A stretch of DNA of 40,153 bases, from sequence record OZ335957.1, one strand, 5' to 3'. The translations under genes were made by a program, and so were the position numbers. Origin of the DNA: a phage. The notes below the pieces were generated by a model. That model was not told the DNA's origin and searched no databases. It saw nothing but the letters and a program-made list of their open reading frames with translations. Every line of letters starts with the position of its first letter. Positions within the stretch are counted from its first letter, which is position 1. Positions 5,151 to 39,017 of the stretch are shown here, one piece after another.

Positions 5151-7832
5151 ATGAGCGTCATCTCTATTGATAAACACGACTTCTCTGATGTGTCTAACGC
5201 CATTGAGCCGTTTAACCTGCTGGCTGACCACTACGGGCAAGACCTTGCAGTCAAACAGCTTCAGCTTGAGCATGAGGCCTACACTGAAGGCGAGCGACGT
5301 TTCATCAAGAACCTTGAGCGTCAGACCGAGCGAGGGGAACTGGCAGACAATCAGGTCGCCAAGCCTTTGATGCAGACTCTGGTTCCTAAGATTGCGCAAG
5401 CCGTCAAGGAGTGGCACGAAGGTCCAGACGGGAAGCTGTCAACCTCACGTCCGAGCGTAGCGTTCACCATGTTAAGCACTGAAGAGAAGGCCGTCAAGGA
5501 CCGCTCTCTTCGCATCTCCTGCGAGTCTGCTGCGGTTATCATACTGAAGGTCATCCTCTCCAAGCTGGTCAAGCCTGAAGGTATACCGATTACACCGATG
5601 GCCTCCGCGATAGGTCGCACACTTGAGGATGAAATCCGATTCGGTCGCATTCGTGACAAGGAGAAGGAGCACTTCAAGAAGGCGATAGCTGATAACCTGA
5701 ACAAGAGAGCCGGGGCATCATACAAGAAAGCCTACATGCAAGCGGTCGAGACATCCATGCTGGAGCAAGGCCAACTAGAAGATGCGTGGGGAACTTGGAG
5801 TCCGACCGAGGCTGTCCACGTTGGAATCAAGATGCTGGAGATTGTCATACAGTCAACACAACTGGTCGAGCTTAAGCGTTACGGTGCTGGCAATGCAACG
5901 GCTGACGTTGAGATGGTCCACCTGTCAGACTTCTGGGTCAAGAAGATGGCACAACGCGGCTTCAGCCTTGCGGGTATCGCTCCAGTCTACCAACCTTGCG
6001 TAGTTCCACCTAAGCCGTGGACTGGTGTCGTAGGCGGTGGGTACTGGGCCAAAGGTCGCAGACCATTACCACTGATTCGCTTAGGGTCTAAGTCTGCGGT
6101 GGCACGTTACGAAGACGTGTATATGCCTGAAGTCTATGACGCTGTTAACATCATCCAGAATACACCTTGGAAAGTGAACAAGAAGGTTCTGGACGTGGTG
6201 AACATGGTCGAGAAGTTGAACAACACGCCTATTGATGACATCCCTCAGATGGAGCCACTGAAGCCTGAAGAATATGCGGGTGAGACTGAAGAGGAACTCA
6301 AGGCGTGGAAGAAAGCGGCTGCTGGTATCTATCGCCGCGAGAAGGCCAGACAGTCACGCAGATTGTCGCTGAGCTTTATCGTTAACCAAGCGAACAAGTT
6401 CTCTCAGTTCAAGGCCATCTGGTTCCCGTACAACATGGACTGGCGCGGTCGCGTCTACGCTGTGCCGATGTTCAACCCTCAGGGTAACGACATGCAAAAG
6501 GGTCTACTGACTCTGGCAGTCGGTAAGCCTATTGGTGCTGATGGTTTCAAATGGCTGAAGGTCCACGGTGCAAACTGTGCGGGTGTCGATAAAGTCACCT
6601 TCGAGGAGCGCATCAAGTGGGTGGAAGACAACCACGACAACATCATGGCTGCTGCTAAGGCACCGATGGATAGCATTGAGTGGTGGGGCAAGTTAGACTC
6701 TCCTTTCTGCTTCCTTGCGTTCTGCTTCGAGTATGCTGGCGTGATGCACCACGGATTGTCTTACTCCTGCTCGCTGCCGATAGCTTTCGATGGGTCCTGC
6801 TCTGGGATTCAGCACTTCAGCGCTATGCTTCGTGACCACATCGGTGGACATGCAGTAAACCTGACGCCTTCCGGTAAGGTCCAAGACATCTACCGCATCG
6901 TTTCTGACCGCATTGAGGAAGAGCTTAAAGTCCTGCTGGTTAACGGCACGGACAACGAGATGGTAACTCACGAGGACAAGAAAACTGGTGAGATTACCGA
7001 GCGTCTCAAGCTGGGGACACGAGAGCTGGCCCGTCAGTGGCTGACCTACGGTATGTCACGCAAGGTTACTAAGCGCTCAGTCATGACTCTGGCCTACGGG
7101 TCGAAAGAGTACGGCTTCGCAGACCAAGTTTACGAGGACATCGTGATGCCCGCGATTGACTCAGGGTCTGGCGCTATGTTCACTGAACCAAGCCAAGCAT
7201 CTCGCTTCATGGCTAAGATGATTTGGGAAGCTGTGAGTGTGACCGTAGTTGCTGCGGTTGACGCGATGAAATGGCTTCAGGGTGCTGCCAAGCTGCTGGC
7301 GGCTGAAGTGAAGGACAAGAAGACTGGCGAAATCCTGAAGCCTTGCCTTCCGGTACACTGGGTCACACCTGATGGGTTCCCGGTCTGGCAGGAATACCGC
7401 AAGAAGGATACCACTCGTCTGAATCTGATGTTCTTAGGGTCATTCAACCTTCAGCCTACCGTCAACAAAGGCACGAAGAAAGAGCTGGATAAGCACAAGC
7501 AGGAGTCAGGCATTAGCCCGAACTTCGTCCACTCACAAGATGGTAGCCACCTCCGCAAGACTGTAGTCCACACGCATCGCAAGTATGGCGTGATGTCATT
7601 CGCAGTGATTCATGATAGCTTCGGGACAATCCCGGCTGACGCTGAATATCTGTTCCGTGGTGTCCGTGAGACGATGGTCGAGACCTACCGCGACAACGAT
7701 GTGCTGCTTGACTTCTACGAGCAGTTTGAATACCAGCTTCACGAGAGCCAGCGCAATAAGTTGCCAGAGCTTCCGAAGAAAGGTAAACTGAATATCGAAG
7801 ACATCTTGTCTTCAGACTTTGCATTCGCTTAA
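5151..7832 (+). CDS. 1: Single-subunit DNA-directed RNA polymerase (T7 gp1-like)
   Basis: 893 aa; collinear with T7 RNAP: PFNLLADHYG, CVVPPKPWTG, WFPYNMDWRGRVYAV, FCFLAFCFEY, IHDSFGT, C-terminal FAFA. Confidence 0.98.
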   Translation: MSVISIDKHDFSDVSNAIEPFNLLADHYGQDLAVKQLQLEHEAYTEGERRFIKNLERQTERGELADNQVAKPLMQTLVPKIAQAVKEWHEGPDGKLSTSRPSVAFTMLSTEEKAVKDRSLRISCESAAVIILKVILSKLVKPEGIPITPMASAIGRTLEDEIRFGRIRDKEKEHFKKAIADNLNKRAGASYKKAYMQAVETSMLEQGQLEDAWGTWSPTEAVHVGIKMLEIVIQSTQLVELKRYGAGNATADVEMVHLSDFWVKKMAQRGFSLAGIAPVYQPCVVPPKPWTGVVGGGYWAKGRRPLPLIRLGSKSAVARYEDVYMPEVYDAVNIIQNTPWKVNKKVLDVVNMVEKLNNTPIDDIPQMEPLKPEEYAGETEEELKAWKKAAAGIYRREKARQSRRLSLSFIVNQANKFSQFKAIWFPYNMDWRGRVYAVPMFNPQGNDMQKGLLTLAVGKPIGADGFKWLKVHGANCAGVDKVTFEERIKWVEDNHDNIMAAAKAPMDSIEWWGKLDSPFCFLAFCFEYAGVMHHGLSYSCSLPIAFDGSCSGIQHFSAMLRDHIGGHAVNLTPSGKVQDIYRIVSDRIEEELKVLLVNGTDNEMVTHEDKKTGEITERLKLGTRELARQWLTYGMSRKVTKRSVMTLAYGSKEYGFADQVYEDIVMPAIDSGSGAMFTEPSQASRFMAKMIWEAVSVTVVAAVDAMKWLQGAAKLLAAEVKDKKTGEILKPCLPVHWVTPDGFPVWQEYRKKDTTRLNLMFLGSFNLQPTVNKGTKKELDKHKQESGISPNFVHSQDGSHLRKTVVHTHRKYGVMSFAVIHDSFGTIPADAEYLFRGVRETMVETYRDNDVLLDFYEQFEYQLHESQRNKLPELPKKGKLNIEDILSSDFAFA

Positions 7833-10848: not shown

Positions 10849-11007
10849 ATGACTGACGTAGAAAAGAAATACATCGTGGAGCTTGAGGGTCGCGTTCAGT
10901 CATTCGAGGTTCCGGTGTACGCAAAGTCTCTTGAAGAGGCTACCCTGAAGTCCCAAGAGTATGAGGACGCTGGGTTTGTGGTCGGACGGATTCGTCCTGA
11001 GACCTAA
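10849..11007 (+). CDS. 2: gp2-like inhibitor of host RNA polymerase (52 aa)
   Basis: [14 protein letters not shown]...[10 protein letters not shown] matches T7 gp2 (SFEVPIYAETLDEA...GFEVTRVRP); AGGAG RBS; internal start of ORF-track 10771 frame. Confidence 0.75.
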
Positions 11008-11025
11008 ACTATCACTGTAGGACAG
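11003..11025 (+). promoter_or_regulatory. Phage RNAP promoter variant (CACTGTAGG), +1 G at 11020
   Basis: CCTAAACTATCACTGTA GGACAG; one mismatch at -3; overlaps gp2 stop codon. Confidence 0.6.
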
Positions 11026-11065: not shown

Positions 11066-11758
11066 ATGGCTAAAGAGCAACTGAAGACTTTCACCACTCC
11101 GGTAGCTGGTATCGTTGAGCCTTACGCATGGCTGAACAAAGCAGACACCAAGTTTAACGAGCGTGGTGAGCATAAGGTTAACCTGACATTCGACCTGAAC
11201 GACCAGAAGGTCCGTAAGATGATTGATGTCTTACAGAAGATTCACGACGATGCGTATGCGAAAGCACTTGCAGACCACGAGAAGAACCCACCTCAGGTTC
11301 AGCGTGGCAAGAAGCCTATTGAACCACGAGAAGGCGACATGCCGTGGATTGAGAATGGTGACGGTACTGTTACCATGAAGTTTAAATGCTTCGCGTCTTA
11401 CCTGAAGGATGGTAAGTCAGAGCCTATCGTATTACGGTTCTACGACACCGATGCTAAGTTAATCCGTGACGTCCCGAATATCGGCGCTGGCTCAAAGCTG
11501 AAGGTCAAGTTTAAAGTCCTGCCGTTCAAGTGGAACGCTGCGACTGGTGCAAGCGTTAAGCTACAGCTTGAGTCATGCCTTCTGGTAGAACTGAAGGAGT
11601 GGAAAGGTGATGGTGGCGATGGTGGCTGGGGTGAGGATGAAGACCTCGGTACTGGTTACAAAGCGTCAACTGATGGTGACTTCGGGTCTGATGACTTCGG
11701 TGACGATGGTTCCGAAGGTGGTGACGACTCTGGCTCTGGTGGCGATTACGACTTCTAA
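11066..11758 (+). CDS. 2.5: Single-stranded DNA-binding protein (T7 gp2.5-like)
   Basis: 230 aa, Gly/Asp-rich acidic tail ending DYDF as in T7 gp2.5. Confidence 0.92.
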   Translation: MAKEQLKTFTTPVAGIVEPYAWLNKADTKFNERGEHKVNLTFDLNDQKVRKMIDVLQKIHDDAYAKALADHEKNPPQVQRGKKPIEPREGDMPWIENGDGTVTMKFKCFASYLKDGKSEPIVLRFYDTDAKLIRDVPNIGAGSKLKVKFKVLPFKWNAATGASVKLQLESCLLVELKEWKGDGGDGGWGEDEDLGTGYKASTDGDFGSDDFGDDGSEGGDDSGSGGDYDF

Positions 11759-12210
11759 TGGCCCAATGGTCTGCAAAACGGGGGCACTCTGTGGGTGCCT
11801 ACCGCTCTGGACTTGAAGCCAAGAACCAGCAGTGGCTGGAACAGAACGGCGTCAAAGCGGAGTACGAAAGCCATTATATCAACTATGTGATTCCGGCTTC
11901 CGACCACAAGTACACACCAGATTTTATCCTTCCCAACGGTATCATCGTGGAGACCAAAGGTATCTTCGATAGTGATGACCGTAAGAAGCACCTTCTGGTA
12001 CGAGAACAGCACCCAGAGTTAGACATCCGGTTCGTGTTCTCAAGTTCCCGCTCCAAGTTATACAAAGGGTCTCCGACCACGTATGGCGCATGGTGCGAAA
12101 AGAACGGCTTTAAATTTGCCGATAAATTCATCCCGGTTGAGTGGCTGCGAGAGGCGACTGTACGTCTGCCTTCAGGTATACTCATCCCCAAGAAGAAAGG
12201 AGTTAAGTGA
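11758..12210 (+). CDS. 3: Endonuclease I, Holliday-junction resolvase (T7 gp3-like)
   Basis: YVIPASDHKYTPDF, ETKG, DDRKKHLLVREQHPELDIRFVFSSSRSKLYKGSPTTYG matches T7 endo I. Confidence 0.93.
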   Translation: MAQWSAKRGHSVGAYRSGLEAKNQQWLEQNGVKAEYESHYINYVIPASDHKYTPDFILPNGIIVETKGIFDSDDRKKHLLVREQHPELDIRFVFSSSRSKLYKGSPTTYGAWCEKNGFKFADKFIPVEWLREATVRLPSGILIPKKKGVK

Positions 12211-12665
12211 TGACTACCTGTAAAGACCTTGAAGTTGGAACACGTTACAGATTCTCAAAGAACACCCTGTTGAATAACCCCAGCTTCACTGATGCTGTTT
12301 TCGAAAAGCGAGAAGACCATAGCGTAATTGTGGAGAAGGGGTGGCATCCTGAGGATTATATCGGTGAGACTACCAGCTGGAATGGTCACGAGACCTACAG
12401 TGTAGAAGTTGTTGACCAGCCTCAAGTCCTGCCAGCTTCGAGCGTACCTCCTGTGACTGTGAAGCGTGAAGTCCTGACAATCGACAAGATTGGTGTAGGC
12501 CAGACGTTCATCGTCCATGGAAAGCCTGAAGAAGTTTACGTGAAGATTAGCAACTCACACGTCTTCAACCATAAGCGTCTCCAGATGCACACCACGGACG
12601 CACAACGCTTCACCCAGCACCTGAATCTAGTGGTCGTAGAATTGGTGGTGTACAATGGTAAGTAA
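12207..12665 (+). CDS. Hypothetical protein (152 aa) inserted between endonuclease I and lysozyme genes
   Basis: ORF coupled to both neighbours (overlapping start/stop); no T7 counterpart at this position; no motif recognised. Confidence 0.6.
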   Translation: MMTTCKDLEVGTRYRFSKNTLLNNPSFTDAVFEKREDHSVIVEKGWHPEDYIGETTSWNGHETYSVEVVDQPQVLPASSVPPVTVKREVLTIDKIGVGQTFIVHGKPEEVYVKISNSHVFNHKRLQMHTTDAQRFTQHLNLVVVELVVYNGK

Positions 12666-13113
12666 GGTACAGTTCAACCCACGGTCCCGGACTGACGCTA
12701 TCTTCGTTCACTGTTCGGCTACCAAGCCAGAGATGGACATCGGGGTAGAGACCATCCGTATGTGGCACAAGCAGCAAGGCTGGCTGGACGTAGGCTACCA
12801 CTTTATCATCAAGCGCGATGGTACTGTGGAAGAGGGTCGCCCGGTAAACGTCGTAGGGTCACACGTTAAGGACTGGAACTCACGGTCTGTAGGCGTCTGC
12901 CTTGTAGGTGGAATTGACGCTAAGGGCAAGTTTGAAGCTAACTTCACTCCTGACCAGATGAACTCCCTACGCAACAAGCTGGCTGACCTGAAGTCCCTGT
13001 ATCCTCAGGCAGAAATCAAAGCACATCATGATGTAGCACCAAAGGCGTGTCCAAGTTTCGACTTACAGCGCTGGCTGTCTATTAATGAGCTGGTCACTTC
13101 CGACCACGGTTAA
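12655..13113 (+). CDS. 3.5: Lysozyme / N-acetylmuramoyl-L-alanine amidase (T7 gp3.5-like)
   Basis: DAIFVHCSATKP, WLDVGYHFIIKRDGTVEEGR, HHDVAPKACPSFDL, NELVTSD match T7 lysozyme. Confidence 0.95.
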   Translation: MVSKVQFNPRSRTDAIFVHCSATKPEMDIGVETIRMWHKQQGWLDVGYHFIIKRDGTVEEGRPVNVVGSHVKDWNSRSVGVCLVGGIDAKGKFEANFTPDQMNSLRNKLADLKSLYPQAEIKAHHDVAPKACPSFDLQRWLSINELVTSDHG

Positions 13114-13137: not shown

Positions 13138-13353
13138 ATGATTAAACTTATCGAATTTCTAGGTCGTCTGGTGGTGCGTGGTTATCGTCGTGCTGCGGTA
13201 CTGGAACGAAAGGTAGAAAAGAAGACTGCTGATGGCGCGGCTGATGCGGCTGCTCTGGCTGACAAGCTAACCATCGCGTCACTGGAAGCTGGCATGAAGG
13301 CTCGTCAGGCTGATACCAAAGCTGACCAGTTGGCTCAGTTCTTCAAAGACTAA
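13138..13353 (+). CDS. Hypothetical protein (71 aa)
   Basis: RBS AAAGGAG; Ala-rich helical sequence. Confidence 0.5.
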   Translation: MIKLIEFLGRLVVRGYRRAAVLERKVEKKTADGAADAAALADKLTIASLEAGMKARQADTKADQLAQFFKD

Positions 13354-13391
13354 ACTATCACCTTAGGGATGGGACCATGAGTCCTGTCCCT
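13349..13391 (+). promoter_or_regulatory. Degenerate promoter-like sequence overlapping an 11-bp-stem hairpin (R3.8-like)
   Basis: ACTAAACTATCACCTTAGGG (CTTA replaces TATA at -4..-1); hairpin AGGGATGGGAC-CATGA-GTCCTGTCCCT at 13365-13391. Confidence 0.35.
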
Positions 13392-15584: not shown

Positions 15585-17756
15585 ATGTTTGACCTTAAGA
15601 GTATCTGGGGTTCTGACATCGAGACCAACGGTCTCCTTGATACAGTCTCCCAGTTTCACTGTGGGGTCCTGATTAACGCCGAGTCGAATGAGACCCTTAA
15701 GTATGGGGTAGCTCCGATGGTCGGTATCGTCGGCGGCTTCAAAGAGTATGTTCATAAAGTGGAAGAGATTGCAGCATCACCTGATGGTATGCTGGTATTC
15801 CATAACGGTATCAACTATGACGTCCCGGCTATAGACAAGCTGAAGCGTTTGTACTTTGGGAAACGCTTTAACTTCCCGAAACATAAGATGATTGATACCT
15901 TGGTGCTGGGACGCTTGATGTATCCAAACATTAAGTTCTCAGACATGGGCGCAGTGAAAGCTGGTCGTCTGCCACCTAAGATGATGGGACGCCAGTCTCT
16001 TGAGGCTTGGGGCTATCGTCTCGGTGAGATGAAAGGTGAGTACAAACACGATTACGTTGCCAAGTGCAAGGCTGAAGGTATCGAATATAAGGCTGGGGAC
16101 GAATGGTTGTTCCCGTCTCAGGAGATGCTGGACTATAACGTTCAAGACGTTGTGGTCACACTGGCGTTGTTCAAGAAGTTCCTGACTGACAAGTATTACT
16201 TCCAGTCTGAACAGTTCGCTTTCGACCAGATTTATGCGTTGCGTCTGGAACATGATGCTGCGTGGACCTGTGCGAAGATGGAGCGTAACGGCTATCCGAT
16301 GAACACCGAGATGGTCGAAGGCTTATATCGTGAACTCACTGTCAAACGTGCAGAGTTGCTGGACAAGCTGCGTTCGACTTTCGGTAGCTGGTACGCACCA
16401 AAGGGAGGCAAGGAGTTCTTCAGGCATCCACGGACAGGTAAGGACCTTCCGAAGTATCCGAGGGTCGTGTATCCTAAGGTCGGTGGCATCTTTAAGAAGC
16501 CGAAGAACAAAGCTCAACGCTTAGGTCTTGAACCTTGTGAACGCGATACGCGAGACACGATGGAAGGAGCACCATTCACGCCAATCACTTACGTTGAGTT
16601 TAATCCGGGAAGCGGAGACCACTTAGCGAAAGTCCTGATGGAGCGTGGCTGGGAGCCTGTTGACTTCACTGACACCGGGAAACCTGTAGTCGATGACGAG
16701 ACGTTGGAACACGTTAAGTTACCAGACGCAGAGGCTCAGGCTTGTGTAGAGCTGGTCCGTGAGTATCTGGTAGTCCAGAAGCGCATCGGGCAGGCTGCTG
16801 AAGGTAAGAACGCATGGTTGAAACTTGTAGGTCCAGACGGACGTATGCACGGTTCAATCAACCCTTGTGGAGCAGTAACCGGACGTGCGACCCATAGTTC
16901 ACCAAACATGGCTCAGGTCCCGGCTAACGGTGCTCCATACGGTGAGACTTGCCGTGGTGCTTTCGGTGCAGCGTGGAACAAGAAGGACGGTAAGCCAGAC
17001 CCTTGGATTCAAGTAGGTGTGGACGCTTCAGGTCTTGAGCTTCGTTGTCTGGGGAACCGAGCGGCTCCGTTTGATGGTGGAGACTATGCGAAGACTGTGG
17101 TCGAAGGGGACATCCACTGGGCCAACGCAGTAAACGCTGGGTTAGCACCTAACGTCCCACGCGATAAGTCGAACCATGACCATGATGCTTTCCGTAACAA
17201 CGCTAAGACGTTCATCTATGCGTTCCTGTATGGTGCAGGGGCCGCTAAGATTGGACTGATAGTTGGCGGTGGTAAGAAGGAAGGTGCTACCCTGATGAAG
17301 AAATTCATTGAGGGTACACCAGCTATTAAAGACCTCAGGGAAGCTGTGAGTAATACGTTAATCTCCGAATCCAAATGGGTAGATGGAGAGAACATCGTGA
17401 AGTGGAAACGTCGCTGGCTGAAAGGTCTGGATGGTCGCCGTATCCACATCCGGTCTCCACACTCAGCACTAAACGCATTACTTCAAGGCGATGGTGCGGT
17501 TGTCTGTAAGCACTGGATTGTAGAGACTGAACGTATGCTTGAAGAGGCAGGGTATGTTCACGGCTGGGAGGGAGACTTCGCGTACATGGCCTGGGTTCAC
17601 GACGAATTGCAGATTGCGTGCCGTACTCAGGAGATTGCCGAAGAAGTCGTCAAGATTGCTCAACTTGCTATGCGTAAGGTGGGTGAGTTCTATAACTTTA
17701 AATGTGTCCTTGATACCGAAGGTAAGATTGGACCAACGTGGAAGGAGTGCCATTGA
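15585..17756 (+). CDS. 5: DNA polymerase (T7 gp5-like, family A) with 3'-5' exonuclease domain
   Basis: 723 aa; SDIETNGL (exo I), FHNG.NYDVPA, GSWY.PKGG, KTFIYAFLYGAG (motif B), WVHDELQ (motif C) collinear with T7 gp5. Confidence 0.98.
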   Translation: MFDLKSIWGSDIETNGLLDTVSQFHCGVLINAESNETLKYGVAPMVGIVGGFKEYVHKVEEIAASPDGMLVFHNGINYDVPAIDKLKRLYFGKRFNFPKHKMIDTLVLGRLMYPNIKFSDMGAVKAGRLPPKMMGRQSLEAWGYRLGEMKGEYKHDYVAKCKAEGIEYKAGDEWLFPSQEMLDYNVQDVVVTLALFKKFLTDKYYFQSEQFAFDQIYALRLEHDAAWTCAKMERNGYPMNTEMVEGLYRELTVKRAELLDKLRSTFGSWYAPKGGKEFFRHPRTGKDLPKYPRVVYPKVGGIFKKPKNKAQRLGLEPCERDTRDTMEGAPFTPITYVEFNPGSGDHLAKVLMERGWEPVDFTDTGKPVVDDETLEHVKLPDAEAQACVELVREYLVVQKRIGQAAEGKNAWLKLVGPDGRMHGSINPCGAVTGRATHSSPNMAQVPANGAPYGETCRGAFGAAWNKKDGKPDPWIQVGVDASGLELRCLGNRAAPFDGGDYAKTVVEGDIHWANAVNAGLAPNVPRDKSNHDHDAFRNNAKTFIYAFLYGAGAAKIGLIVGGGKKEGATLMKKFIEGTPAIKDLREAVSNTLISESKWVDGENIVKWKRRWLKGLDGRRIHIRSPHSALNALLQGDGAVVCKHWIVETERMLEEAGYVHGWEGDFAYMAWVHDELQIACRTQEIAEEVVKIAQLAMRKVGEFYNFKCVLDTEGKIGPTWKECH

Positions 17757-18207: not shown

Positions 18208-18413
18208 GTGAATACTTACGGGTCCTAGCGGCCCTTAAGTCCTGCCCGAAGACCTTCCAGTCCAACTATGTGCGCAACAACGCTGCACTGGTGGCTGAGG
18301 CTGCGAGTCGTGGACATCTAAGCTGCCTGTCTATGGATGGGCGTAACAACGGTGCGTGGGAGATTACCGCTGCTGGCACCAAGTTCCTGAACCAACATGG
18401 AGGCTGTCTATGA
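18204..18413 (+). CDS. 5.7: gp5.7-like protein
   Basis: KSCPKTFQSNYVRNNAALVAEAASRGHLSCL...GAWEITAAGTKFL nearly identical in pattern to T7 gp5.7. Confidence 0.85.
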   Translation: MSEYLRVLAALKSCPKTFQSNYVRNNAALVAEAASRGHLSCLSMDGRNNGAWEITAAGTKFLNQHGGCL

Positions 18414-18865
18414 AGATACCTGAAAGTCTGAAAGAGCTGGTCCTTGACATAGGTGAGTGTGAGTGCGAGAAGGAGCACCGCAAGTACGCTGAGTTCTACG
18501 CATCTTGGTCATACACCTTGACAGAGAATGACGTTGAGTCATATACCGAGTCTCCCGCTGAGGCCTATGAGTGGCGTCAGTTCATCGGGCTGACCATCGT
18601 AGCCAGTGGTATGTGGAATGACAGCTACGGTTCAGAGGTAAATGACTGGGGAGTATATCGCCAGGTTGAGAAGGAGACTGAGATGTCTTCAAACTTCTGG
18701 AACCTGATGTCCCACCTCAACTCAGATGACAACGACATGGCACATGAGTTCGCCAACAAATGGCTGAAGCCTGAGGTGACTCTGGAACGTATTGAGGAGC
18801 CTAAAGTTCCCTTGATGCCATATGCAGTCGCTATGGCTACAGGAGGTCTGGACGATGGGTGCTGA
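18410..18865 (+). CDS. Hypothetical acidic protein (151 aa) in the gene 5.9 position
   Basis: Internal ATG of ORF-track frame 18356 that overlaps gp5.7 stop; CECEKEH motif; Glu/Asp-rich; T7 gp5.9 is only about 52 aa. Confidence 0.6.
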   Translation: MKIPESLKELVLDIGECECEKEHRKYAEFYASWSYTLTENDVESYTESPAEAYEWRQFIGLTIVASGMWNDSYGSEVNDWGVYRQVEKETEMSSNFWNLMSHLNSDDNDMAHEFANKWLKPEVTLERIEEPKVPLMPYAVAMATGGLDDGC

Positions 18866-35822: not shown

Positions 35823-38800
35823 ATGTCCACGATTACACAATTCCCTTCAGGAAACACTCAGTACAGGATTGAGTTCGACTACCTAGCCAGAACGTTTGTT
35901 GTTGTTACGCTGGTGAATAACTCTAACCCTACCCTGAACCGTGTACTGGAAGTTGGTCGAGATTATCGATTCCTTAATCCAACGATGATTGAGATGTTGG
36001 TTGACCAATCAGGTTTCGACATCGTTCGCATTCACCGTCAGACTGGAACTGACTTAGTGGTAGACTTCAGGAATGGCTCAGTGTTGACGGCTAGTGACCT
36101 GACAAATTCAGAGCTTCAGGCTATCCATATTGCAGAAGAAGGTCGAGACCAAACGGTTGACTTAGCGAAGGAATATGCCGATGCTGCTGGTAGCTCTGCT
36201 GGCAACGCTAAGGATAGCGAGGACGAAGCACGCCGAATCGCTGAGAGTATCAGGGAAGCTGGTCTAATTGGCTATATGACCCGTCGCTCCTTCGAGAAAG
36301 GCTACAACGTTACAACATGGAGCGAGGTCCTGCTATGGGAAGAGGATGGTGATTATTACCGCTGGGATGGTACGCTTCCAAAGAACGTTCCTGCTGGTTC
36401 AACTCCTGAAACTTCCGGTGGGATTGGATTAGGTGCGTGGGTTAGTGTTGGTGATGCTGCTTTAAGAAGTCAGATTTCAAACCCGGAAGGGGCAATACTC
36501 TACCCTGAATTACATAGAGCACGCTGGCTTGATGAAAATGATGTTCGTGGTTGGGGTGCTAAAGGGGATGGTGTCACTGATGATACAGCAGCGTTAACGA
36601 GCGCATTAAACGACATACCGGTTGGACAAAAGATTAATGGCAATGGGAAGACATATAAGGTCACATCCCTGCCTGACATTAGTCGCTTCATCAACACTCG
36701 TTTCGTTTATGAGCGCATTCCCGGACAACCTCTTTATTATGCCTCTGAAGAATTTGTTCAGGGTGAGTTGTTCAAAATAACGGACACCCCTTATTACAAT
36801 GCGTGGCCTCAGGATAAAGCGTTCGTATATGATAATGTGATATATGCACCTTACATGGGTAGCGATCGTCATGGTGTTAGTCGTCTGCATGTGTCATGGG
36901 TTAAGTCTGGTGATGATGGTCAAACATGGTCTACTCCAGAGTGGCTAACTGATCTGCATCCAGATTACCCTACAGTGAACTATCACTGTATGAGTATGGG
37001 TGTATGTCGCAACCGTCTGTTTGCCATGATTGAAACACGTACTTTAGCCAATAACGCATTAACCAATTGTGCATTGTGGGATCGCCCCATGTCTCGTAGC
37101 CTGCATCTTACTGGTGGTATCACTAAAGCTGCAAATCAGCGATATGCAACAATACATGTACCAGACCACGGACTATTCGTGGGTGATTTTGTTAACTTCT
37201 CTAATTCTGCGGTAACAGGTGTATCCGGTGATATGACTGTTGCAACCGTAATAGATAAGGACAACTTCACGGTTCTTACACCCAACCAGCAGACTTCAGA
37301 TTTGAATAACGCTGGAAAGAATTGGCACATGGGTACTTCTTTCCATAAGTCTCCATGGCGTAAGACAGACCTTGGTCTAATCCCTCGTGTCACAGAGGTG
37401 CATAGCTTTGCTACTATTGATAACAATGGCTTTGTTATGGGCTATCATCAAGGCGATGTAGCTCCACGCGAAGTTGGGCTTTTCTACTTCCCTGATGCTT
37501 TCAATAGCCCATCTAGTTATGTTCGTCGTCAGATACCATCTGAGTATGAACCAGATGCGTCAGAGCCGTGCATCAAGTACTATGACGGTGTATTATACCT
37601 TATCACTCGTGGCACTCGTGGGGATAGACTAGGTAGCTCTTTGCATCGTAGTAGAGACATAGGTCAGACTTGGGAGTCACTGAGATTTCCACATAATGTT
37701 CATCATACTACATTACCTTTTGCTAAAGTAGGGGATGACCTTATTATGTTTGGTTCAGAACGTGCAGAAAATGAATGGGAAGCAGGTGCACCAGATGATA
37801 GGTACAAGGCATCTTATCCTCGCACCTTCTATGCACGCTTGAATGTAAACAATTGGAATGCAGATGATATTGAATGGGTTAACATCACTGACCAGATTTA
37901 TCAGGGCGGAATAGTTAACTCAGGTGTAGGTGTTGGTTCGGTAGTTGTGAAGGATAATTACATCTACTACATGTTTGGTGGAGAGGACCATTTTAACCCA
38001 TGGACATATGGAGATAACTCAGCGAGGGACCCATTCAAATCAGATGGTCATCCCTCAGATTTGTATTGCTACAAAATGAAGATTGGCCCAAGCAATCATG
38101 TTTCCCGTGATTTCAGGTATGGTGCTGTACCTAACAGAGCTGTTCCCGTGTTTTTTGATACGAATGGGATTCGCACTGTTCCTGCGCCAATGGAATTTAC
38201 AGGGGATTTGGGTTTAGGTCATGTGACCATTAGAGCCAGCACCAGTAGTAACATTCGCTCTGAAGTTTTAATGGAAGGTGAATATGGGTTTATCGGGAAA
38301 TCTATACCGACTGATAACCCGGCAGGGCAGCGCACCATATTTTGCGGGGGTGAAGGCACCAGTTCAACGACTGGCGCACAGATTACGCTTCATGGTGCAA
38401 ATAGCACCGACTCAAGGCGAATAGTTTACAATGGTGATGAGCATCTGTTCCAGACTGCTGACGTTAAGCCTTATCACGATAACGTCACTGCGCTTGGTGG
38501 ACCACGTAACCGTTTCACAACTGCATATCTCGGAAGCAACCCTATTGTTACTTCTAATGGGGAGAGGAAAACAGAGCCGGTAGTTTTTGATGATGCTTTC
38601 CTAGATGCCTGGGATGACGTTCACTACATCATGTATCAATGGTTAGACGCTGTTCAACTGAAAGGCAATGATGCTCGTATTCACTTCGGGGTTATTGCTC
38701 AGCAAATTCGTGATGTATTCATTGCACACGGTCTGATGGATGAAAACAGTACGAATTGTCGTTATGCAGTTCTGTGCTATGACAAGTATCCACGGATGAC

Positions 38801-39017
38801 TGATACGGTATTTTCGCACTATGAAATCATTGAACACACTGACGAGGAGGGTAATGTCACTACTACGGAAGAGCCTGTATTCACTGAGGTGGTTATCCAT
38901 GAAGAGGGTGAGGAGTGGGGTGTTCGGCCTGACGGAATTTTCTTTGCTGAAGCCGCTTATCAGAGAAGAAAACTGAAAAGAATCGAAGCCAGACTTTCTG
39001 CTCTTGAACAGAAGTAA
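35823..39017 (+). CDS. 17: Tailspike endosialidase (endo-N-acetylneuraminidase) with T7 gp17-like N-terminal adaptor and C-terminal intramolecular chaperone domain
   Basis: 1064 aa; N-terminus FDYLARTFVVVTL like T7 gp17; Asp boxes SGDDGQTW (36906-36929) and SRDIGQTW (37650-37673); C-terminal 153 aa after Ser911 with S74-type chaperone motifs. Confidence 0.93.
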   Translation: MSTITQFPSGNTQYRIEFDYLARTFVVVTLVNNSNPTLNRVLEVGRDYRFLNPTMIEMLVDQSGFDIVRIHRQTGTDLVVDFRNGSVLTASDLTNSELQAIHIAEEGRDQTVDLAKEYADAAGSSAGNAKDSEDEARRIAESIREAGLIGYMTRRSFEKGYNVTTWSEVLLWEEDGDYYRWDGTLPKNVPAGSTPETSGGIGLGAWVSVGDAALRSQISNPEGAILYPELHRARWLDENDVRGWGAKGDGVTDDTAALTSALNDIPVGQKINGNGKTYKVTSLPDISRFINTRFVYERIPGQPLYYASEEFVQGELFKITDTPYYNAWPQDKAFVYDNVIYAPYMGSDRHGVSRLHVSWVKSGDDGQTWSTPEWLTDLHPDYPTVNYHCMSMGVCRNRLFAMIETRTLANNALTNCALWDRPMSRSLHLTGGITKAANQRYATIHVPDHGLFVGDFVNFSNSAVTGVSGDMTVATVIDKDNFTVLTPNQQTSDLNNAGKNWHMGTSFHKSPWRKTDLGLIPRVTEVHSFATIDNNGFVMGYHQGDVAPREVGLFYFPDAFNSPSSYVRRQIPSEYEPDASEPCIKYYDGVLYLITRGTRGDRLGSSLHRSRDIGQTWESLRFPHNVHHTTLPFAKVGDDLIMFGSERAENEWEAGAPDDRYKASYPRTFYARLNVNNWNADDIEWVNITDQIYQGGIVNSGVGVGSVVVKDNYIYYMFGGEDHFNPWTYGDNSARDPFKSDGHPSDLYCYKMKIGPSNHVSRDFRYGAVPNRAVPVFFDTNGIRTVPAPMEFTGDLGLGHVTIRASTSSNIRSEVLMEGEYGFIGKSIPTDNPAGQRTIFCGGEGTSSTTGAQITLHGANSTDSRRIVYNGDEHLFQTADVKPYHDNVTALGGPRNRFTTAYLGSNPIVTSNGERKTEPVVFDDAFLDAWDDVHYIMYQWLDAVQLKGNDARIHFGVIAQQIRDVFIAHGLMDENSTNCRYAVLCYDKYPRMTDTVFSHYEIIEHTDEEGNVTTTEEPVFTEVVIHEEGEEWGVRPDGIFFAEAAYQRRKLKRIEARLSALEQK

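Follow-up and report, generated by a model that had tools for sequence, protein, structure and literature searches.

The window analysed here is the whole 40,153-nt stretch of phage DNA in sequence record OZ335957.1, and the gene under study lies between the genes for endonuclease I and lysozyme. The features at this locus are:

11003..11025, + strand: phage-RNA-polymerase promoter of the phi2.5 type, which heads the unit 2.5-3-3.2-3.5-3.7
11758..12210, + strand: gene 3 (ORF), endonuclease I, 150 aa, the upstream neighbour of gene 3.2
12196..12202, + strand: Shine-Dalgarno sequence AAAGGAG of gene 3.2, read from the sequence, within the end of gene 3
12210..12665, + strand: coding sequence of gene 3.2, 151 aa plus TAA; its ATG overlaps the gene 3 stop codon by 1 nt
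12655..13113, + strand: gene 3.5 (ORF), lysozyme/amidase, 152 aa; its first 11 nt overlap the end of gene 3.2

The ORF listing for the window places this gene at 12207..12665 on the + strand, with a GTG start and a product of 152 aa, and the original prediction described it as a 152-aa ORF coupled to both of its neighbours. The ORF and the overlaps are confirmed, but the start is to be moved: the real start is most likely the in-frame ATG at 12210 rather than the GTG at 12207, giving a product of 151 aa (one codon below 152), since all of the homologues found in databases (120 out of 120) begin with the methionine of this ATG (MTTCKDL...), and the annotation of phage Pipis has a 151-aa CDS with a ribosome-binding site. 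The sequence AAAGGAG is found 7 nt ahead of this ATG (the spacer is ttaagtg), and the arrangement of AGAAAGGAG, spacer and ATG is retained in 39 out of 40 distinct relatives, regardless of which N-terminal module (see below) follows.

In relatives with 99% identity across a 1.5-kb stretch, the upstream gene carries the annotation endonuclease I. The stop codon of this gene (TGA, 12208-12210) has one base in common with the ATG of gene 3.2 (a TGATG overlap). At the other end, the TAA of gene 3.2 (12663-12665) closes an 11-nt overlap with the lysozyme gene (ATG at 12655). The overlap between gene 3 and gene 3.2 is -1 or -4 in all 21 loci in which gene 3 was recognised by our script, and the overlap between gene 3.2 and the lysozyme gene is -11 in 29 out of the 34 relatives in which the lysozyme gene was recognised by the script.

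The promoter at 11003-11025 is identical to the annotated phi2.5 promoter of EcoDS1 (CCTAAACTATCACTGTAGGACAG). The following phage-type promoter is at 13349-13371 and there is none between the two, so genes 2.5, 3, 3.2 and 3.5 and the small ORF after the lysozyme gene form one middle-class transcription unit. We searched gene 3.2 itself for a promoter or terminator and found none, nor any notable sigma-70-like or terminator-like signal.

Over the whole window, 12 23-mers on the + strand (with at most five mismatches) match the EcoDS1-type phage RNA-polymerase promoter (consensus about CTAAACTATCACTATAGGA), at positions 1859, 5059, 8137, 9804, 11003, 13349, 19851, 19880, 22690, 23689, 28477 and 35753; together these matches outline the transcription map of the phage. 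The window resembles a whole, circularly permuted genome, with a 587-aa ORF starting from base 1 (1-1764), an 893-aa RNA polymerase (5151-7832) and a 1064-aa ORF near its end (35823-39017). From their sizes and the T7-type gene order, we would guess that the 587-aa and 1064-aa ORFs encode the terminase and the tailspike.

The 1.5-kb stretch matches 248 phage records, mostly of the genus Kayfunavirus (Autographiviridae, Studiervirinae); it is 99.6–99.7% identical to Escherichia phages PhiNW-B1 and Vec13, and 99.0% identical to Pipis. At the protein level, both halves of the gene product are 100% identical to those of Vec13 and PhiNW-B1, and the N half is also 100% identical to those of Pipis and LNA3 (the entire Pipis protein is identical). 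The gene is annotated as '3.2, gp3.2' in EcoDS1 and as '3.2, gp3.2 protein' in one K1F record (AM084414), as 'unknown' in the other K1F record (DQ111067), and as 'hypothetical protein' elsewhere. Two PHROG profiles match the protein, phrog_16385 over aa 66-151 (E 3.4e-51) and phrog_15211 over aa 82-151 (E 4.9e-40), and both carry no functional label. The sequence profile, the locus with its coupling and the invariant core motif (see below) all place the product in the gp3.2 family (PHROG 16385/15211). On sequence evidence, the ORF is gene 3.2, a genus-wide gene of the K1F-like (Kayfunavirus) phages that is present in almost all of them. The original prediction had taken it for an unrecognised extra 'cargo' gene; since it is a genus-wide gene annotated, function-less, in the K1F and EcoDS1 records, that view has to be abandoned, and as a sequence feature gene 3.2 is already known and already catalogued. 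In T7, gene 3.5 comes directly after gene 3, and to our knowledge T7 and T3 are both without gene 3.2.

A frameshift close to the 3' end of gene 3.2 distinguishes the two K1F records: the product in DQ111067 ends with ...HTTGRTTLHPAHESSGRRIGGVQW, versus the conserved ...HTTDAQRFTQHMNLVVVELVVYNGK in AM084414. This is probably a sequencing error in one of the two records.

The constant part of the protein was found by tblastn in 220 out of 50,697 phage records (one place in each, always after endonuclease I), and the genomes are all 37–41 kb in length. A word-indexed search of 5.8 billion proteins collected 254 relatives, nearly all of them on contigs of up to about 40 kb, and HMMER, run exhaustively over 1.84 billion cluster representatives, returned 14 clusters only, with none outside T7-like phage contigs. 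We also scanned one genome per species for 185,579 species of bacteria and archaea with a sequence pattern and found no relatives, so that a host origin of gene 3.2 and prophage relatives are both rejected. The family is thus found in phages only, and it appears to be restricted to lytic T7-like phages. It includes a divergent subfamily in Providencia-phage-like Studiervirinae, which shares 31–43% identity in the constant part and is likewise encoded directly after endonuclease I. One record that carries the gene, MT350292.1 ('Enterococcus phage EFA-1', labelled Enterococcus faecalis and UNVERIFIED_ORG), has the genome of a typical Kayfunavirus, and its gene 3.2 is of type B (see below); the host label is probably wrong or derived from contamination.

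An alignment of 25 diverse members has 58 invariant columns, of which 56 fall in the C-terminal 76 residues, and the N termini are unalignable. The gene has two modules, which in the window are arranged as follows:

12210..12413, + strand: N-terminal variable module, type A (aa 1-68), a predicted SH3-like barrel
12414..12452, + strand: Pro-rich linker DQPQVLPASSVPP (aa 69-81), the recombination breakpoint between the modules
12453..12662, + strand: C-terminal constant module (aa 82-151), a predicted SH3-like barrel and the core of the family
12537..12611, + strand: invariant motif Y110-x-[VM]-SNSH-x-FN-x4-QMHTT-x3-RF134, from alignments across both subfamilies

The motif is invariant across the Kayfunavirus and Providencia-phage subfamilies despite their low overall identity, the residues of the window's protein between Y110 and F134 include every invariant one, and hhalign matches the C module of one subfamily to that of the other at 98.5%. 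Among the N termini of the Kayfunavirus proteins, inspection and profile–profile comparison distinguish at least four types (A, B, C and D): type A is the one found in the window, and type B, the commonest, is found in K1F and EcoDS1. No two of these four types are related in sequence (hhalign probability <10%), and types D and D' are related (98%). A shared origin of the N types was considered and is rejected by hhalign at the sequence level.

There are 27 phage records with type A and 56 with type B, in every case at the gene 3.2 locus and at one place per genome, and the linker is kept in all Kayfunavirus forms that have an N module. Many genomes (e.g. Dev2, the SH phages and loci L013-L019 of our collection) encode C-only forms of 74–76 aa, and tandem N modules are found in the combinations B+A+C, D+A+C and C+A+C. 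In PSTCR2, a free-standing N-like ORF of 117 aa (L020 2729-3082) follows the gene 3.2 homologue; the same module makes up the N-terminal part of a metagenomic protein (P0196), where it is fused to the constant module, which points to a gene fusion or fission event within the gene 3.2 family. We found no description of this constant-plus-cassette organisation in the literature searched, and it may be described elsewhere. In another protein (P0044, 157 aa, on a 39.7-kb contig), the first 60 residues look like an out-of-frame type-B N module, with the frame restored before the linker; either a frameshifted allele or a faulty assembly could account for this.

Selection acts differently on the two modules. 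Pairwise dN/dS values were calculated by the Nei–Gojobori method, with the last 74 codons taken as the C module. For the C module, dN/dS is 0.02–0.11 (at dS of 0.08–0.93) in comparisons with relatives that have an N module and 0.15–0.29 in comparisons with the more distant C-only forms; the values of the adjoining lysozyme gene (0.06–0.18) are comparable. When 16 type-B genes were placed on a neighbour-joining tree, 108 synonymous and 40 nonsynonymous changes were counted in the C module, for a dN/dS of 0.11. Gene 3.2 is a real, constrained gene and not a chance ORF.

The selection analysis of the N module concerns type B, and the window's type A varies less. Pairwise dN/dS for the type-B N module is 0.32–0.48, versus 0.0–0.33 for the rest of the same genes, and on the 16-gene tree it has 170 synonymous and 314 nonsynonymous changes (dN/dS 0.50, about five times that of the rest of the protein); on this tree there are 3.5 synonymous changes per synonymous site for the N module, compared with 1.9 for the C module. 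Out of the 76 codons of this module 27 have no amino-acid change and a few loop codons change many times, and hypervariable positions are also apparent among 39 type-B proteins. For the 16 type-B genes, per-site tests based on the synonymous count of the individual site reach no significance; when a module-wide synonymous rate is used, three loop codons change at 2.3–2.6 times the rate and one of them passes Bonferroni correction. The evidence for diversifying selection on the type-B N module is suggestive, and we do not claim it as proven, because one site is robust, and in the shared-dS test only; the loops could be unconstrained rather than positively selected.

The N modules are exchanged between phages. 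Between the window and PH1061, dS rises from 0.08 in the N module to 0.89 past the linker, a jump that shows recombination between the modules. The conserved flanks (the end of gene 3 with the Shine-Dalgarno sequence on one side, and the linker and C module on the other) would supply the homology for such an exchange.

An AlphaFold2 model of the full-length protein, made with 24 sequences, has pLDDT values of 87–93 for residues 1-70 and of 31–61 for the C-terminal half; modelled alone (with 28 sequences, including the distant subfamily), the C module has a mean pLDDT of 79, with about 90 in its core. The linker has low pLDDT. Both modules are predicted to be SH3-like barrels, with scores that support the fold class and not a family or a function. 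The SH3-like barrel is a fold that typically serves binding. The closest structural neighbours are FeoA and the C-domains of DtxR, both from metal-handling systems, and in BFVD the matches are limited to the gp3.2 family itself and many uncharacterised phage proteins of 70–85 aa. No profile match to the FeoA family (PF04023) or to another SH3-type sequence family was found, so the predicted likeness is one of fold class only.

Searches of family databases agree with the original prediction in that the protein has no recognised motif (HNH or nucleotide-binding): Pfam gives nothing for the window's protein at E≤10, and nothing for 10 diverse relatives at E≤1 except two sub-threshold chance matches. 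NCBIfam and PDB sequences gave nothing usable for the window's protein, its relatives or the family profiles, and there is no nuclease or HNH match to the gene 3.2 product in Pfam, PHROG or NCBIfam. None of the five family members searched against PADLOC has a match, and with the family also absent from the genomes of the 185,579 species, the product does not appear to be a component of bacterial defence. The original prediction had named homology to a T7-group gene of established function as evidence against it; the homologues that we found are without established function. We found no functional study of gp3.2 in the literature on K1F, Kayfunavirus and accessory-gene screens, and according to the BASEL paper the molecular biology of Kayfunavirus has scarcely been studied (PMC11990801).

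Comparison with known proteins shows what is shared and what varies within the family. The gp3.2 proteins of K1F (CAJ29361.1) and EcoDS1 (YP_002003755.1) are encoded at the same locus between genes 3 and 3.5, with the same coupling, and their C modules are 96–100% identical to that of the window; their type-B N module, however, is unrelated in sequence to the type A of the window, and they too have no described function. Cronobacter phage Dev2 and the Citrobacter SH phages encode, at the same locus, a gp3.2 of 74 aa with a homologous constant module (about 80% identity) and without an N module, the minimal form of the family. The subfamily of Providencia phage PSTCR2 (QPB11931.1) has the same site after endonuclease I, the two-module plan and the SNSH-FN-QMHTT-RF core, but differs (besides its 31–43% identity) in its own N modules (PN1-3), a different linker and two more ORFs before the lysozyme gene. 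With FeoA, the DtxR/IdeR C-terminal domain, KapB and KOW/Tudor domains the predicted likeness is of fold class only (no Pfam match, 4–15% identity), and, unlike the FeoA/DtxR-type barrels, gene 3.2 has no iron-transport or transcription context.

Several small T7 proteins (Ocr, gp2, gp5.5, gp5.7 and gp1.2), encoded by early or middle genes, are non-enzymatic binders of host proteins. gp3.2 has no homology to any of them, and relatives of the window phage carry homologues of them (Ocr-like, gp1.2, gp2, gp5.5 and gp5.7). We know of none among these five with a constant module and exchangeable partner modules.

Two further observations concern small ORFs in these genomes. In the close relatives PH1061 (L003 2456-2827) and SD6 (L059 1056-1427) an ORF of 372 nt, separate from gene 3.2, is found between gene 3.2 and the lysozyme gene; it is annotated as an HNH endonuclease in PH1061, and it starts at the ATG that corresponds to the overlapping lysozyme ATG at 12655 of the window. 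From these inserts, the 3.2/3.5 junction appears to be an insertion site for homing endonucleases. Elsewhere, a hypothetical ORF of about 150–170 aa is found between the gp5.5/5.7 homologues and the exonuclease (15590-16039 of the Pipis locus, L035, and about 18356-18865 in the window), a position at which T7 has gp5.9, a RecBCD inhibitor of 52 aa. Like gene 3.2, this ORF is an unassigned middle gene of the genus.

We tentatively propose, as a possible reading, that gp3.2 is a cytoplasmic two-barrel adaptor or inhibitor, with one barrel, the constant one, for a conserved partner and the other, exchangeable one for a strain-variable host protein. According to this model, gp3.2 would be a small binding protein of the cytoplasm, in which a Pro-rich linker connects two SH3-like beta-barrels. 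It would be produced from the phi2.5 transcript during the middle (DNA-metabolism) period, with its translation coupled to that of endonuclease I and lysozyme. The invariant polar SNSH/QMHTT/RF patch of the C-terminal barrel would bind one conserved partner and carry the core function, and this barrel may be self-sufficient in about a third of the relatives. The N-terminal barrel would be an exchangeable specificity cassette for another partner, which would vary from strain to strain and most likely is a host protein. With the constant barrel holding its conserved partner and the N cassette recognising a variable host partner, the protein as a whole could serve host takeover or counter-defence, as an adaptor or as an inhibitor. 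We infer that gp3.2 binds rather than catalyses, and likewise what its partners may be and that host defence is involved; the exchangeable, fast-evolving N module fits, as circumstantial evidence, a host-interaction role such as the host takeover or anti-defence suggested by the original prediction. Against this reading, the N type does not track the receptor, as phages of K1-capsule hosts have type A (PhiNW-B1 and Pipis, the host of the latter being UTI89, which we take to be a K1 strain) or type B (K1F).

The placement in a DNA-metabolism operon would fit a replication/recombination accessory role just as well. A somewhat doubtful reading is that gp3.2 is an accessory factor of phage DNA metabolism or of lysozyme/RNA-polymerase control, whose constant barrel binds DNA or a protein from the same transcript (gp2.5 SSB, endonuclease I or gp3.5 lysozyme), with the N modules acting as modulators. 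In every relative, gene 3.2 shares a transcript and translational coupling with genes 2.5, 3 and 3.5, and even the distant Providencia-phage subfamily has it placed after endonuclease I; its C module is constrained as much as the adjoining enzymes, and SH3-like barrels of the KOW, Tudor and L2 kinds often bind nucleic acids. Yet T7 and T3, neither of which is known to carry it, manage without, and a purely internal partner would leave unexplained why there are four or more unrelated N modules that can be exchanged and have hypervariable loops. Those modules could also be independent morons, fused in frame at the gene 3/3.2 junction to a C module that alone is gene 3.2 proper, with no joint mechanism. 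This would account for the common C-only forms, the tandem stacking of N modules, the N-like module that is free-standing in PSTCR2 and fused in P0196, and a junction that is an insertion hot spot (HNH genes are inserted beside gene 3.2 in PH1061 and SD6). We consider it unlikely, however, as every Kayfunavirus N module is found fused through the same conserved linker (PQVLPASSVPP) and never as a separate ORF, and types A and B are found at one place per genome, always this locus; such a persistent fusion of the N and C modules argues for a joint function.

An enzymatic role would take another form: the constant module could be a small enzyme or a metal- or ligand-binding protein, with a site of Ser-Asn-Ser-His, Gln-Met-His-Thr-Thr and Arg residues that acts on, e.g., a nucleotide signal or a host small molecule. 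The chance of this seems quite small, as some 70 residues in a plain SH3-like barrel are little for an enzyme and no family match is found in Pfam, NCBIfam or PDB sequences, although the motif is unusually polar and kept strictly invariant at 31–43% identity, and the nearest structural neighbours (FeoA and the DtxR C-domains) are metal-handling. It is hardly credible that gene 3.2 is a chance or decaying ORF with no function. The protein has no known domain and no published function that we could find, but the selection data (dN/dS of about 0.1 with abundant synonymous change) contradict the idea, and so do the Shine-Dalgarno sequence and coupling conserved across 40 relatives, the presence of the gene in 220 genomes and the confident AlphaFold2 folds.

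What sets gene 3.2 apart is that, in one of the best-conserved small proteins of the genus, a cassette is replaced by unrelated modules, stacked or dropped. In phages, a swapped and fast-evolving cassette usually marks a host interface, and this modular pattern makes gene 3.2 a fair candidate for anti-defence screens. The adaptor/inhibitor reading can be extended to a plug-and-play counter-defence adaptor, in which the constant barrel would dock on one conserved machine (an enzyme of the phage, for instance, or a protease, nuclease or polymerase of the host) and stackable N barrels would capture strain-specific host immunity proteins. This extension is speculative and on balance improbable; if it were true, phages would change or widen their counter-defence range by exchanging cassettes at a single locus. 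Kayfunaviruses such as K1F, LM33_P1 and CLB_P1 serve in therapy-oriented work, and there has been little study of their molecular biology (PMC11990801); the gene 3.2 locus may tune their strain-specific success.
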